Shown in pieces: positions 6,063 to 11,288 of a stretch of DNA of 49,184 nt. A program made the position numbers and the translations under genes. The notes under the pieces were generated by a model. That model was not told where the DNA came from. It searched no databases and was given only the letters and a program-made list of their open reading frames with translations. Source of the stretch: an uncultured Candidatus Saccharibacteria bacterium (lineage in GTDB: Bacteria > Patescibacteriota > Minisyncoccia > Portnoybacterales > UBA2143); the NCBI GenBank assembly GCA_964403725.1, contig CAYOHI010000004.1:1784-50967 (forward strand), given 5' to 3'. Numbering within the stretch: the stretch's first letter is position 1; each line of letters opens with the position of its first letter.

Positions 6063-6689
6063 ATGAAAATTATCAAGAATAATAACATTGATTGGTCATC
6101 TGATACAGCTTATGTTGTTGGATTGATAACTACGGACGGATGTTTGTCAGGCGACGGAAGACATATCGATTTTACATCTAAAGATATCCAATTATTAAAA
6201 ACATTCAAGAAGTGTCTAGGTATTAAAAATAAAATAACACTTAAAAAAAGTTCTTATACTGGTCGAAAAGATTGTTCCCGTATCCAATTTGGGAATGTTA
6301 TATTTTATAGATGGTTGCTTGATATAGGATTAATGACTAATAAAACAAAAAGAATGAAAGAAATCAAAGTGCCAAATAAATTCTTTTTTGATTTTTTACG
6401 CGGATATTTAGACGGCGATGGACATATCAGAAAATACCAAGATCCTGTATATCCTAATAGCCTAAGAATCTATGTATCTTTTTCTTCGTGCAATATAGAA
6501 CATCTTGAATGGTTGAGAAATAGAATTAATAAACTTCTGTTCATTAACGGATTCTTTAAAAAAGGACCCAGAGCGTATAGTTTAACTTTTTCAAAAAAAG
6601 AATCTTTAATTCTATTACCAAGAATTTATCCAAATTCAGAAGTTCCTTGTCTCAAGAGAAAATACAATATTATTAAGAATCTAATATAA
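6063..6689 (+). CDS. Free-standing double-motif LAGLIDADG endonuclease-like protein
   Basis: AYVVGLITTDG and FLRGYLDGDG motifs. Confidence 0.85.
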   Translation: MKIIKNNNIDWSSDTAYVVGLITTDGCLSGDGRHIDFTSKDIQLLKTFKKCLGIKNKITLKKSSYTGRKDCSRIQFGNVIFYRWLLDIGLMTNKTKRMKEIKVPNKFFFDFLRGYLDGDGHIRKYQDPVYPNSLRIYVSFSSCNIEHLEWLRNRINKLLFINGFFKKGPRAYSLTFSKKESLILLPRIYPNSEVPCLKRKYNIIKNLI

Positions 6690-6692
6690 GAA

Positions 6693-6775
6693 GCCGAAGT
6701 GATGAAACTGGCAAACATGCACGGTTCAGAACCGTGTGCCCCTAGGGCTTATGGGTTCAAATCCCATCTTCGGCA
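6693..6775 (+). tRNA. tRNA-Leu (CAG)
   Basis: GCCGAAG/CTTCGGC acceptor stem, CACGG-TTCAGAA-CCGTG anticodon arm, long variable arm, TTCAAAT T-loop; CCA not encoded. Confidence 0.95.
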
Positions 6776-6878
6776 CAGTTAAAAAACTTATCATTTAAAA
6801 GATAAAAAACAATAATATTTTGTTAAACTGCTACTCGGCAAAATATTTTGTTTAGCTTTGAATGAAAAAATAAAATAT

Positions 6879-8561
6879 ATGACAAAAACAACAAAATCAA
6901 AAAGCCTAAGGATTATTCCATTAGGCGGCTTAGAAGGTATTGGACGCAATATGATGGTTCTTGAATACCAAGACGACATTATCATTATTGACGTCGGCCT
7001 ACAGTTCCCTGAGGAAGACATGCCAGGCATTGATTACATCATTCCTAACACAGCTTACCTTAAGGACAAAAAAGACAAAATAAAGGGTGTTATCATAACC
7101 CATGGTCACTTAGACCATATTGGAGCCATTCCTCATTCTATGGGAAGATTAGGCAATCCTCCAATCTATGCTGCACCTTTAACTAAAGGAATCATCTTAA
7201 AAAGACAGATTGATTTCCCGGGATCGCCGAAATTAGATCTCCATGACATAAATAAGACATCTAAAATCAAATTAGGTTGTTTTAAGGTTGAATTCTTTCA
7301 TGTTAATCACAATATCCCAGATGGATTAGGCATAGTTATCGATACCCCTGTCGGAAGAATTGTTCATACTGGCGACTTTAAATTTGACCATACTCCAATT
7401 GGCGATGAACCAGCTGATATTTCAAGAATTACTGAAATAGCTAATGGCGGCGTTCATCTATTGATGTCAGACAGCACTGGCGCTGAAAAACCAGGCCATT
7501 CAATCTCTGAAAGAGATATTCAGGATAACCTGGAAACAATATTCAGGGAATCCCAGGGAAGAATAGTCATTGCTACCTTTGCATCCCTGATCAGCAGAAT
7601 CCAGCAAGTTATTAACTTAGCTGAGAAATATGACAGAAAAGTACTAGTTGACGGGTATAGCATGAAATCTAATGTTGAATTAGCCAAGAAATTAAAGCAT
7701 CTCAAATCGAAACCAGGCACATTGAACAAAATTAGCGCTATTAAGGATTATCCAGACAACAAAGTAGTCATCCTATGCACAGGCAGCCAAGGAGAAAGCA
7801 ATGCCGTACTGATGAGAATCGTCAACAGAGAACATCGCTATGTCCAGACTCAAAAAGGAGATGCAGTTGTCTTTTCATCATCATCTGTGCCAGGCAACGA
7901 AAGATCTGTCCAGAATCTTAAAGATATCCTATGGCAGCAAGGAGCCAGGGTGTATCATTACAAGATGATGGATATCCATGCCGGCGGACACGCCCAAGTT
8001 GAAGATTTGAAAATGATGATTAACCTCATCAGGCCTAAGTTCTTCTTCCCAATCCACGGCAACTATTACATGCTCAAGCTACATGGAGAAATTGCCCAAG
8101 GAGTAGGCATTCCAACTAAAAACATCATGACAGCCAGTAATGGAGATGTAGTTCTCTTAAACAAAAGAAGCATATCCCAAAGCAAAGAAAAAGTACCGGC
8201 CGGGTACGTCATGGTTGACGGCCTAGGCGTTGGCGATGTCGGCCAGGTAGTCCTCAGAGATAGACAAGCTATGGCTAAAGATGGTATGTTTGTAATAATA
8301 ACGCTAATTGATGGAAAAACAGGACAAGTCAGAGGTGAACCAGATATCATTTCTAGAGGATTTGTTTATCTCAGAGAAAATAAGGAATTACTTGATAAAA
8401 CTAGAGAAAAAGTTAGAGATATTGTTAAACATGCTTCTTCAACTAACAATACATCCAACTGGACATACATTAAAGAAAATATTCGTGACAAGGTTGGCCA
8501 ATTCCTGTATACTAAGACACAGAGACGCCCAATGGTCTTACCGGTAGTAATCAAAGTATAG
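6879..8561 (+). CDS. rnj: Ribonuclease J
   Basis: IPLGGLEGIGRNM, THGHLDHIG, HTGDFK, HAGGH, PIHG and RRPMVLPV motifs. Confidence 0.97.
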   Translation: MTKTTKSKSLRIIPLGGLEGIGRNMMVLEYQDDIIIIDVGLQFPEEDMPGIDYIIPNTAYLKDKKDKIKGVIITHGHLDHIGAIPHSMGRLGNPPIYAAPLTKGIILKRQIDFPGSPKLDLHDINKTSKIKLGCFKVEFFHVNHNIPDGLGIVIDTPVGRIVHTGDFKFDHTPIGDEPADISRITEIANGGVHLLMSDSTGAEKPGHSISERDIQDNLETIFRESQGRIVIATFASLISRIQQVINLAEKYDRKVLVDGYSMKSNVELAKKLKHLKSKPGTLNKISAIKDYPDNKVVILCTGSQGESNAVLMRIVNREHRYVQTQKGDAVVFSSSSVPGNERSVQNLKDILWQQGARVYHYKMMDIHAGGHAQVEDLKMMINLIRPKFFFPIHGNYYMLKLHGEIAQGVGIPTKNIMTASNGDVVLLNKRSISQSKEKVPAGYVMVDGLGVGDVGQVVLRDRQAMAKDGMFVIITLIDGKTGQVRGEPDIISRGFVYLRENKELLDKTREKVRDIVKHASSTNNTSNWTYIKENIRDKVGQFLYTKTQRRPMVLPVVIKV

Positions 8562-8624: not shown

Positions 8625-9326
8625 ATGAACAATCAAGACAAGAAAGTCCAATCAGATCCTTTAAGAGCCAATTCAGGGAATCCTCAATTATTCGGTACAC
8701 CTAACCCCAATGACCCAACACCTATGTCGAGCGGTCCGCAATTCGGTTTAGAGAACACAGACAGCAAAAAAGAAAAATTCAGAGGCTGGATTAACAAATA
8801 CGGCAGCTCTGTAATTTTACCAATCGTTGCCTTGTCCATTTTGGCTGGTGGTATTTATCTTTACACCAATCAAAAAAATGAACAAGCAAAGCTATTTCCA
8901 GAAGATAACTTGGCTGGAATCCAGGAACAATTACCTGGTGCTACTGATGAAGGAGTCGTCGCTGATCCTAATCAGAAAATTAGCCAAGCCCCTAATACAG
9001 ACAAGCCTATTGAAAAGATTATTCCTCAAGGGAGAAAAGAAGGTAAAAACATTATTGAAAAAGCAGCTACTGGAGAAGGCACAACGCATTTAGCTCGTCG
9101 TGCCCTAAAAGATTACCTCAAGGATAATAAACGTGAATTAACTAACGAACATAAAATATATATTGAAGATTACCTTAAAGATGAAATTGGCTCACAACCA
9201 TTAGAAGTTGGTGAAGAAATCACCTTTTCTGAAGATTTAATTAACGAAGCTATAGACGCTTCACTTGAATTAAATCCAGAGCAACTTAAAAACCTGGAAC
9301 AATACAGCGCTTTAGTTGCCTGGTAG
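8625..9326 (+). CDS. Single-TM membrane-anchored hypothetical protein
   Basis: One hydrophobic segment, low-complexity linker, C-terminal domain GEGTTHLARRAL...IYIEDYL. Confidence 0.75.
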   Translation: MNNQDKKVQSDPLRANSGNPQLFGTPNPNDPTPMSSGPQFGLENTDSKKEKFRGWINKYGSSVILPIVALSILAGGIYLYTNQKNEQAKLFPEDNLAGIQEQLPGATDEGVVADPNQKISQAPNTDKPIEKIIPQGRKEGKNIIEKAATGEGTTHLARRALKDYLKDNKRELTNEHKIYIEDYLKDEIGSQPLEVGEEITFSEDLINEAIDASLELNPEQLKNLEQYSALVAW

Positions 9327-9365
9327 CGTATATAAATACGTTTAGTTCTTTCCTTTATATTCAAA

Positions 9366-9394
9366 CATAAAAGCCCCCATTGGGGGCTTTTATG
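9366..9394. terminator. Bidirectional intrinsic terminator
   Basis: CATAAAAGCCCCC/GGGGGCTTTTATG inverted repeat. Confidence 0.85.
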
Positions 9395-9871
9395 ATATAT
9401 TTTGTTCGTAAGAACATTATCTTTCTGTTAAAAACAGATAGATAACAACATTTTCTTGAGCTAGTAACTGAGTCAGACCCAGTTAAAGACTAAAGATAAA
9501 TGCTACCGCTACTAATACAAACTAGCAAGCAGTAGTGTGGGAATCCTTTGGGCACAAGGCCCGTTTCAATAAGGAGGGATTTTGAAACTCTATAAATAGA
9601 TCAAGATTCCCACACTACTACCAACTAATACTTTTATTTTGAAAGGACGATGACGAATCAGTCCTTTTGGTTGTTTTGTGCGACCCTGCGGGGCGCCGTA
9701 GCCTCAAAGGTCCGGTGGCCGGTGGGGCGCATGCTGTATTTATACGATTTAATCGAAGACCGATCAGCTCTGACGGGCGGCCGAGAGGGATATATCCTCG
9801 TATATGGGGTAGCCTCGTAGCCAGATCGGGTATATGATGTTTTGAAGGTTTAAATCCGATTTGTCATCGTT
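9366..9871 (-). ncRNA. Candidate ~500-nt structured non-coding RNA
   Basis: No ORF of 60 aa or more; consensus promoter; stems 9856-9870/9647-9661 (13 of 15) and 9605-9619/9531-9545 (15 of 15); GC-rich core. Confidence 0.65.
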
Positions 9872-9877
9872 GTAACA

Positions 9878-9906
9878 AGCATAGCATACCCTGACAAATT
9901 TGTCAA
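9878..9906 (-). promoter_or_regulatory. Strong sigma70 promoter with extended -10
   Basis: TTGACA-17-TATGCT with TGn immediately before the -10. Confidence 0.8.
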
Positions 9907-9986
9907 GAGTTTTTGCCTATTTTCATAAAAAACAAAAGAACAACAAATTAGTGCTCTTATCTCAAGGGCTTGTCTTATTTAAAAAA

Positions 9987-11288
9987 TTAATCAAAATATT
10001 CTTTTTGAAACTGCGATGCATAGGTCATTGCTCTCTCTGCAACCGATAACAATCCTCGCCAATACTTTCCGCCAACATACATAGCATAAGCTTTTCTTTC
10101 AGCTTCATATGTCTTAGCCGTAGCTCCAGCATCAGCCAACTTAATAGCTGAAGCTGTGAAAGCATCCCTGAAATTCCAAGGGTTAGGAGGATTACTGCCT
10201 GTAACAGAAGCAATTCTATCTTTGTATGACAGCCAAGTGGTTGGCATGAATTGAGCTATGCCCATAGCCCCACCACACCCTCTGTAAGCCGTTGGTTTGG
10301 CTGAAACGGGCTGTGCATCTGGATCTATGCCTAATTCTTCACAAATCTGCAAAAAAGCGTTCTTCATGCTATTACCCATAGTGATATATCCCCGGTTGAT
10401 ATTGCATTGATACATATCATATTTCCAGGTTCCTGTACCGACATTCAATCCAAGACGGGATTCATTCTCTAGAACTCCTAAAAGGAAAGCAGGCCTGATG
10501 CCAGTCTTTGTTCCGGCATAAATGGCATTCTGAACAGCATCATCTAAGGTAATGTCATATTTATCCAGCAAGGTCAGCTGATCTTTGATATAGTTGATCT
10601 CTTGCTCATTGCTCTCGATCATCTGCCTATAACGGGCTTCTTCTCCCTTGGTCTTATCAAGCAAGTCTTCTTTTTGCCATTGCTTTACCTCAACATCCCT
10701 CTTTTGAGATAATTGGACTGTCTTTAGCCTATTCTGAACATCCCTCTGGCCTTCTAACTCATCTTTTTGCAATTGCATTTCATCTTTTAAAGAATGCACA
10801 GCAGCCAGAATCGTATGGATTTGCTCTTGAACAGTCTCTAATGCATTTAATTCATCAAAGAAATCGGAAAACTTCTCATTTTTCAATATTACCTCCAAAA
10901 GGCTTTCCTGGTCATATTGAGCCATTGTCCTTAAGTACTCAGCCAAAAGCTCTTTCTTTTCTTTGATTCTAGTCTCTAAATCATAAATTTGAGAATCTAT
11001 TCCCTGTATATCCAAAGTGCTTCTCTGAATCATTAAATCAACTTGATTGATTTCAGCTCTAATCTGGTCAATCTGGTCTTCTAGAATATTGATATCTGTT
11101 TGAAGTGATTTTGCTTTTTCCTTATTCTGATCAATACTGCCTTGGTACTGGCTAATTTCTTGTTCTTTCTGCTTTATTTGATTCTCTAAATCCTTCTTCA
11201 GATCATCTACGCTGGCCCCGGACACAGAAAAAGGAACCGCCAAGGCGATTAATAGGAGAAAACCAATATATTTGCTTTTTTCAAACAT
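9987..11288 (-). CDS. Secreted coiled-coil protein with C-terminal lytic transglycosylase domain
   Basis: Signal peptide, long heptad region, ENES and GAMGIAQFMPTTW motifs. Confidence 0.9.
   Translation of the reverse strand: MFEKSKYIGFLLLIALAVPFSVSGASVDDLKKDLENQIKQKEQEISQYQGSIDQNKEKAKSLQTDINILEDQIDQIRAEINQVDLMIQRSTLDIQGIDSQIYDLETRIKEKKELLAEYLRTMAQYDQESLLEVILKNEKFSDFFDELNALETVQEQIHTILAAVHSLKDEMQLQKDELEGQRDVQNRLKTVQLSQKRDVEVKQWQKEDLLDKTKGEEARYRQMIESNEQEINYIKDQLTLLDKYDITLDDAVQNAIYAGTKTGIRPAFLLGVLENESRLGLNVGTGTWKYDMYQCNINRGYITMGNSMKNAFLQICEELGIDPDAQPVSAKPTAYRGCGGAMGIAQFMPTTWLSYKDRIASVTGSNPPNPWNFRDAFTASAIKLADAGATAKTYEAERKAYAMYVGGKYWRGLLSVAERAMTYASQFQKEYFD

Follow-up and report, generated by a model that had tools for sequence, protein, structure and literature searches.

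The question raised by this locus is what is formed by a cloverleaf at positions 9531-9619 of a 49,184-nt stretch of DNA from an uncultured member of the Patescibacteriota (contig CAYOHI010000004.1, assembly GCA_964403725.1), which is referred to below, at its full length, as the window. The original prediction, made from the letters alone, was of a cloverleaf with an anti-Shine-Dalgarno loop, which was taken either for an RNA that sequesters Shine-Dalgarno (SD) sequences or for a mimic of the joined termini of precursor 16S rRNA. Comparison with related genomes indicates that the cloverleaf is the core of a conserved minus-strand small RNA (sRNA) gene in Patescibacteria. By analogy with the sRNAs alpha-r14/NfeR1 and SprX, its product may be an Hfq-independent base-pairing sRNA that occludes AGGAGG ribosome-binding sites (RBSs), and we put the probability of this reading at roughly 0.45.

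On inspection of the sequence, a perfect 15-bp inverted repeat, in which 9531-9545 pairs with 9605-9619, encloses three hairpins, as had been described. The closing helix is longer than this repeat and comprises 22 pairs, formed by 9523-9546 with 9604-9627. Both strands of the 101-nt stretch that was folded adopt an identical cloverleaf; the minus strand reached -45.3 kcal/mol (z -7.6) and the plus strand -38.4 kcal/mol (z -5.9), and none of the 200 dinucleotide shuffles generated per strand was as stable. The junction linkers measure approximately 3, 0, 0, and 3 nt in the minimum free energy fold, or 4, 0, 0, and 4 nt if the helix is counted as 15 bp. The central hairpin, GTTTCAA/TTGAAAC, is likewise present as first reported. 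It has a 12-nt loop at 9570-9581, with the minus-strand sequence AAUCCCUCCUUA (plus strand, UAAGGAGGGAUU), and UUUAUAGAGUUUCA, within which the hairpin was said to begin, was also confirmed.

The genome that holds the window (G000) is a 675-kb assembly of 16 contigs that is 99% complete, and the cloverleaf is single-copy in it. Other copies were sought by BLAST in 60 relatives, of which 35 are the other members of the host's taxonomic family (36 genomes including G000, to which all family counts refer), and with a covariance model, R1. A broader model, R2, was also applied to the class sample; the wider samples comprised 23 genomes of the order's other families, 146 other genomes of the class, and 150 of the phylum. 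BLAST recovered the stretch in 20 of the 60 relatives, 19 of these being among the 35 other family genomes, and R1 gave one strong copy (83-124 bits) in each of 25 of the 36 family genomes plus one weak partial match. No copy was found with R1 in the 23 genomes of the order's other families. In the class sample, 5 of 146 genomes were matched by R1 and 6 of 146 by R2, one of them with two copies, and the phylum sample yielded a single weak match among 150 genomes (32.8 bits), the sequence of which follows the same plan. A loose pattern scan of public contigs matched at least 119 stretches, and the model confirmed 14 of 80 loci that were retrieved; among the contigs listed, those with true matches are labelled Patescibacteria group, Parcubacteria group, Candidatus Portnoybacteria, Candidatus Yanofskybacteria, and, for some third-party assemblies, Saccharibacteria.

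Covariation was evaluated in a 25-sequence alignment, in which pairing extends to 97.8% of cells and both sides have changed in 22 of 36 pairs; this alignment was fitted to the R1 structure, which favours that structure. None of 500 shuffles reached any of the observed covariation measures, sliding the partners by 1-3 columns gave 34-53% pairing, and an unfitted MAFFT alignment contains double changes in 13 of 29 predicted pairs. Compensatory changes occur in every stem and the loop is nearly invariant. The core module (9520-9636, minus strand) is matched by R1 with 123 bits. Its closing helix is made up of a 5' strand at 9604-9627 (10 of 22 pairs changed on both sides, 97.6% of cells paired) and a 3' strand at 9523-9546, the outer part of which is able to pair downstream instead, as a hairpin designated P5. 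Hairpin 1 (UCUA-UUUA-UAGA, 9589-9600) is variable in sequence and tolerates insertions, and all 3 of its modelled pairs covary. The central hairpin (9563-9588) consists of a 7-bp stem, with compensatory changes in 6 of 7 pairs, and the 12-nt loop (9581-9570) with an anti-SD-like CCUCCU. Hairpin 3 (GGGC-CUUGU-GCCC, 9550-9562) covaries in 3 of 4 pairs and is paired in 100% of cells. Extra hairpins are inserted into hairpin 1 at two loci, approximately 30 nt in L051 (genome G025) and approximately 65 nt in L054 (G010), as judged from match lengths of 145 and 181 nt versus approximately 115 nt, which suggests that the tip of hairpin 1 is unconstrained.

The loop, conservation of which had been named as a check on the prediction, is the most strongly conserved feature of the RNA. 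In the family, 24 of 25 copies carry CCUCCU (the remaining one has CCUUCU), as do all nine copies outside the family, termed the distant copies; the motif is always placed in an apical loop, and the stems beneath it differ. Each RNA has one CCUCCU loop, and the other two loops are U-rich. Folded independently, each of the nine distant copies forms a closing helix of 20-25 bp and two or three hairpins, and in 8 of them a hairpin resembling GGGC...GCCC precedes the 3' strand; in some, the anti-SD hairpin is the first arm and not the second. By our own reading, a TTGACA/TATAAT promoter of their own is found in 6 of 8 distant copies read, and a terminator-like hairpin in 4 (L248, L247, L257, and L258). 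Their neighbours vary, including release factor 1 with L31, a PilB-type ATPase, an ABC-auxiliary protein with a DUF4340 protein, ClpP, and once L25, and neither a common partner gene nor mobile-element genes were found in the neighbourhoods of the distant copies.

The functional strand was identified from wobble pairs in 900 paired cells. Read as the minus strand, the alignment holds 89 G-U cells versus 15 A-C/C-A cells, and reading it as the plus strand swaps these numbers, so the minus strand is the functional one. A promoter is also found on this strand in 19 of 19 homologs. If the plus strand were functional, the element could be read as the leader of an mRNA, exposing an SD, UAAGGAGGGAU, and containing a tiny open reading frame (ORF), or as a CsrA-type sponge with GGA loops. 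The plus strand does fold well, and in the window its AAGGAGG loop is followed by TTG AAA CTC TAT AAA TAG, but 89 G-U cells would become A-C mismatches against 15 in the other direction, relatives do not retain the 5-codon ORF, only a single GGA loop exists, no plus-strand promoter was found, and the element lies after the terminator of the upstream plus-strand gene. This alternative is given next to no credence, and membership in the CsrB/RsmZ-type sponges was rejected from the single GGA loop and the strand test. The perfect inverted repeat and the location at a switch in gene orientation would also suit an element acting as DNA, such as a miniature transposon bounded by terminal inverted repeats or a site of recombination or replication. 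With one copy per genome, synteny fixed across the family, a strand-asymmetric G-U pattern, compensatory changes in the inner hairpins, and a promoter and terminator of its own, such an element is practically untenable.

The gene is located in a 660-nt gap between convergent genes. Its sigma-70 promoter (9878-9906, minus strand) has a -35 element TTGACA (9906-9901), a 17-nt spacer, and a TG-extended -10 element TATGCT (9883-9878), with 10 of 12 matches; in the 19 homologs the promoter has the form TTGACA-N17-TATRMT, usually TG-extended, at the equivalent minus-strand place. Judged from this arrangement, transcription would start at approximately 9871-9873, and the transcript would extend from approximately 9872 to 9362, about 510 nt. 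Of 14 sequencing runs listed for the stretch or part of it, none is recorded as RNA (the kind is given as 'DNA?'). A GC-rich hairpin terminator at 9366-9394, with U-runs on both strands, would be common to the sRNA and to the convergent 233-aa gene on the plus strand. The terminator scan flags it for the plus strand only; by our own reading, minus-strand termination would use a shorter stem, GCCCCC/GGGGGC, followed by UUUUAUGUUU.

Upstream of the core, a variable GC-rich (approximately 55%) 5' domain (9647-9870, minus strand) is closed by a 15-bp helix of 9856-9870 with 9647-9661. Such a domain is present in 8 of 19 homologs, with unrelated interiors of approximately 80-250 nt; comparison by eye showed that the closing helix GAUGGUGAAUCGG/CCGAUUCACCAUC is kept and that its wobbles agree with the minus strand. 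The 3' strand of this helix overlaps a terminator-like local hairpin, AAAGGAC...GUCCUUU (9642-9668), and the two may be alternatives. A riboswitch-like reading of that overlap was considered unsupported, as the interior is not conserved; the domain showed no repeat in the genome, no likeness to other loci, and no Rfam match.

Downstream of the core, on the same strand, is a 3' module that begins with P5 (CUACUGC...GCGGUAG with inner UGCUA/UAGUA, 9503-9535). P5 excludes the outer closing helix and, by our own reading, competes with it because the sequence of the 3' strand of P5 recurs in the 5' strand of the helix; pairs of P5 covary in homologs (ACTA/TAGT, GCTA/TAGC, GTTA/TAAC). The remainder of the module consists of a long hairpin (9449-9502) with a conserved apical loop, GGGUCUGACUC, and a region at 9401-9445 in which a hairpin UUAUCUAUCUG...CAGAAAGAUAA (9417-9445) is followed by UGUUC-UUAC-GAACA (9401-9416), which contains a boxA-like UGUUCUU. 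The modules occur in several combinations. In five genomes (G018, G021, and the three of genus g9) the terminator follows the cloverleaf directly or after a short remnant, in approximately 135-160 nt. Two family genomes (loci L021 and L104) have the promoter and the 3' module including P5 but no cloverleaf, and two loci (L103 and L106) have only terminators in the gap. Since the 3' module stands alone under the same promoter in L021 and L104, it may be a second, separate small RNA that was fused to the first.

The second explanation in the original prediction, a mimic or remnant of precursor 16S rRNA in which boxA, processing stalk, and joined 16S termini are retained and the body is deleted, would make the RNA a decoy for RNase III, RNase J, or Nus factors. 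The long helix could be cut by RNase III, the gene for which (rnc) is encoded in G000, the loop has anti-SD letters, and the gene for RNase J, kept in synteny, is two genes away. With regard to boxA, UGUUCUU(A)...AAAAUAU comes after a hairpin of the 3' module in several genera and is similar to the relatives' rrn boxA, AUGUUCUUUGAAAA, but the motif lies after the cloverleaf, next to the terminator, in an optional module, and is absent from the short forms and all nine distant copies. Because the G000 assembly holds no 16S contig, operons of family relatives were used for comparison with the rrn leader, stalk, and trailer. Six sRNA loci were compared with 12 family rrn loci, and BLAST returned only AT-rich words of up to 17 nt, the best being 14 nt with an E value of 0.076. 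The family processing stalk, UGCAAUUUUGUGCAGUUGUCCCA/UGGGACAACUGCACAAGAUUGCA, is unrelated to the sRNA helix. The resemblance to the 16S start, AGAGUUUGAUC, did not hold up, as AGAGUUU falls in covarying stems and is confined to the window, relatives lacking it; of the resemblance to the 16S 3' end, GAUCACCUCC occurs in 0 of 34 copies and only CCUCCU is kept, in a closed hairpin loop in the middle of the RNA and not at a 3' end beside a stalk. The rrn comparison, the unconserved AGAGUUU, and the optional boxA together lead us to reject the mimic, which we regard as scarcely tenable, and to retain only the anti-SD likeness.

That likeness was examined against the 16S tails of the family. The letters CCUCCU are those of the anti-SD core of 16S rRNA, and the family 16S 3' end is GGAUCACCUCCUUUCUA in 6 of 8 rrn loci inspected, these being the loci whose 3' end was reached. 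The natural anti-SD, in the tail GAUCACCUCCUU, and the window RNA have CCUCCU(U) in common, together with a preceding AUC in many copies (AUC precedes C/CCUCC in 13 of 25 family copies), whereas the motif of the window RNA is placed in a closed hairpin loop of a separate RNA with no likeness to helix 45, the stalk, or the rrn flanks. A decoy of the 16S tail, in which the loop would titrate a protein that reads the tail (Era, YbeY, KsgA, a ribonuclease acting on rRNA, or another 30S assembly factor) with no mRNA pairing, is favoured by this AUC, by the window loop AAUCCCUCCUUA differing from the family tail GAUCACCUCCUUU mainly by one missing A, and by an elaborate scaffold that suits a protein-binding RNA. 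According to PMC10582724, Era binds GAUCA and CCUCC on the single-stranded 16S tail and needs the two adenines of GAUCA. Yet GAUCA precedes CCUCC in 0 of 34 copies, only CCUCCU being invariant, and the RNA is missing from 10-11 of the 36 family genomes having the same 16S tail. Moreover, in the carrier G092 (locus L263) the 16S tail, GGAUUAUUUCCUUUCU, has lost CCUCC and the sRNA keeps its loop, UUCCUCCUA, so the loop does not follow its supposed model; a tail decoy is distinctly unlikely. Another carrier, G079, has a canonical 16S tail behind a 16S insertion of approximately 440 nt. Large 16S insertions were seen at three loci of relatives, L261 (G079, where the insertion precedes helix 45), L072 (G004, with a 2.15-kb 16S match), and L071 (G002).

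Known RNA families were searched for with Rfam 15. At the gathering score, the only match in the window was tRNA-Leu (6693-6775), and with E values up to 10 in 9300-10000 the cloverleaf was met only by chance rows of an miRNA, BTnc049, and fstAT at no more than 17.4 bits, far under the cut-offs. ARAGORN likewise gave only tRNA-Leu for tRNA and transfer-messenger RNA (tmRNA), the tmRNA being encoded elsewhere in the genome (contig C1), and a tRNA-like identity was rejected because the junction linkers and the 22-bp 'acceptor' helix are unlike tRNA. Y RNA/YrlA was rejected as well, a TROVE protein not being found in G000 and no Rfam match being obtained. The same was concluded for 6S, signal recognition particle (SRP), and RNase P RNAs: models of 6S and of the small and large bacterial SRP RNAs match nothing in G000, RNase P RNA is found on contig C6, and by our own reading the architecture is unlike 6S or SRP. 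None of the SprX, RsaE/RoxS, LhrC, or csRNA families appeared in the Rfam scan of the locus. These are C-rich-loop sRNAs of low-GC Gram-positives for which Hfq is dispensable, and like the window RNA they have a pyrimidine-rich apical loop, with which they pair to the SD or RBS; their loops are UCCC/CCCC, whereas the window RNA has the full CCUCCU and differs in architecture, taxon, and sequence. For SprX, PMC4005690 describes pairing of its C-rich loop with the spoVG RBS, by which initiation is blocked.

The closest parallel in plan is provided by the alpha-r14 ('cuckoo') sRNAs of alpha-rhizobia, such as NfeR1, to which AbcR1/2 are related (AbcR1 is mentioned in PMC6234868). As described in PMC10746234, these RNAs have three hairpins with variable stems, each with an ultraconserved anti-SD motif, CCUCCUCCC, the motifs act redundantly, and mRNAs are silenced at RBS and initiation regions independently of Hfq. 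A promoter of its own, variable hairpin stems, and a conserved unpaired CCUCC-type motif are shared with the window RNA, which differs in having a single CCUCCU loop in a junction closed by a 20-25-bp helix and not three redundant motifs on consecutive hairpins. Membership in alpha-r14/NfeR1 was rejected on that definition. The host phyla are also unrelated, and no Rfam family matched the window RNA at E values up to 10. As a functional class, anti-SD or C-rich-loop base-pairing sRNAs would accommodate the window RNA, in which a predicted promoter and terminator, an invariant unpaired SD complement, and covarying stems were all identified. Full-text searches of the available literature on Patescibacteria, Parcubacteria, and the Candidate Phyla Radiation turned up no account of an RNA of this kind. 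sRNAs with an anti-SD seed are already known elsewhere, and what appears to be new here is the architecture and the phylum of this one, the function of which is predicted.

The RBS-occluding reading was preferred because the RNA has an independent gene, stems that vary, and a single unpaired SD complement that does not, as is typical of known sRNAs that occlude RBSs. In the proposed mechanism, the near-consensus sigma-70 promoter would drive a minus-strand transcript that folds into the four-way junction. The very long helix (22 pairs here, 20-25 elsewhere) would join its 5' and 3' sides and probably protects or defines the mature RNA. CCUCCU in the central 12-nt loop would then pair in trans, and without Hfq, with (A)AGGAGG in the initiation regions of the minority of mRNAs with a strong SD, shutting out the 30S subunit. 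The core would be made as a fusion with the variable 5' domain and the 3' hairpin module, and cleavage by RNase III within the 22-bp and 15-bp helices could release the modules.

Possible targets were examined in G000, in which Hfq was not found. SD usage was estimated from a crude gene call of 447 first-ATG ORFs; GGAGG is located at -15 to -6 in 19 of these versus approximately 3 per 5-nt bin upstream, the usual form is AAGGAGG, and GGAGGU is preferred over GGAGGG. With so few SD-led genes, the mRNAs open to such an RNA could form a limited set. The best complement of the loop is the RBS of nusB, UAAGGAGGGAUA, in the region of approximately 10157-11125 of contig C12, with 11 of 12 nt and a duplex of -20.4 kcal/mol versus -17.4 for the next among 1,912 ORF starts. 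In G000, nusB is directly followed by rnc. As a conserved target, nusB was rejected, since no more than 2 of the 26 family genomes read (G000 and G001) have the SD; most family nusB leaders are AT-rich spacers with no SD, in agreement with the weak SD use in G000. For the neighbouring PcsB-like gene as a target, the result was mixed: a strong SD is present in approximately half of the carriers read and is absent from the others and from a genome without the cloverleaf.

Several of these observations count against RBS occlusion, and the SD-sequestering half of the original prediction fits the loop conservation and the strand, but no conserved mRNA target was found in the family comparisons of nusB and the PcsB-like gene. 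SD use is weak in G000 and SD-led genes are a minority, and the narrow occurrence of the nusB SD points the same way. The SD of the PcsB-like gene is missing in carriers G003, G008, G012, and G028, overlaps the coding end of L25, and is partly a by-product of Lys-Glu-Glu codons. The seed of 6-7 nt is short, and the elaborate junction and 20-25-bp helix exceed the needs of a simple seed-presenting sRNA. In G092, the tail without CCUCC makes a classical SD hardly the partner, and in the survey of PMC9297842 no more than 48% of the 16S genes from Parcubacteria have the CCTCCT motif. The loop therefore does not simply shadow the ribosome's own anti-SD, and its partner in some hosts may not be a classical SD.

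These points bear on two further readings. In the first, the RNA is another kind of structured RNA, such as the scaffold of a ribonucleoprotein, a precursor that RNase III processes into several small RNAs, or an RNA that regulates a neighbouring function, with CCUCCU serving as a protein-binding or tertiary-contact element and its anti-SD likeness incidental. Recurrence of the four-way junction, the long helix, and the second GGGC...GCCC hairpin in distant copies, the modular build (cloverleaf alone, 3' module alone, or both), the lack of a conserved target, and the one carrier 16S without CCUCC would all suit it. No partner protein is indicated, however, since neighbourhoods differ by lineage and neither Hfq nor Ro/TROVE was found in G000, and the sole invariant single-stranded element is an exact SD complement, which is known to act as the seed in several families of sRNAs; we consider this reading somewhat unlikely. 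In the second, which we consider highly improbable, a free-standing anti-SD in a lineage that is abandoning SD-led initiation would decide the fate of the remaining AGGAGG mRNAs as a class, either by sequestering them and shifting translation to SD-less mRNAs or by supplying an anti-SD in trans where the ribosome has lost its own.

The genes around the sRNA are arranged in the same way wherever contigs of the family reach, the plus strand carrying RNase J (6858-8561) and the 233-aa gene (8625-9326), and the minus strand carrying the sRNA, a PcsB/SLT-like gene (9987-11288), and L25 (11289-11999). The 233-aa product is a membrane-anchored protein with a disordered N-terminus, one predicted membrane helix, and no Pfam match; its gene adjoins that of RNase J and is convergent with the sRNA throughout the family. 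Further upstream, the region 6063-6776 of the window contains a 208-aa LAGLIDADG-domain ORF, which ends 4 nt before tRNA-Leu(CAG), and is free-standing and homing-endonuclease-like, no intron being recognised there.

To our knowledge, almost no regulatory RNAs are known from the Candidate Phyla Radiation, since its members are uncultured and have tiny genomes. The RNA gene described here is structurally well supported and is retained in a genome of 0.6-0.7 Mb under a near-perfect promoter, and its long closing helix and modular fusion with other RNA domains are unusual among bacterial sRNAs. If the RBS-occluding reading is true, post-transcriptional control at the level of the RBS would exist even in such minimal cells, and the RNA would provide a handle on translation initiation in lineages that have few SD sequences and sometimes no anti-SD in their 16S rRNA.

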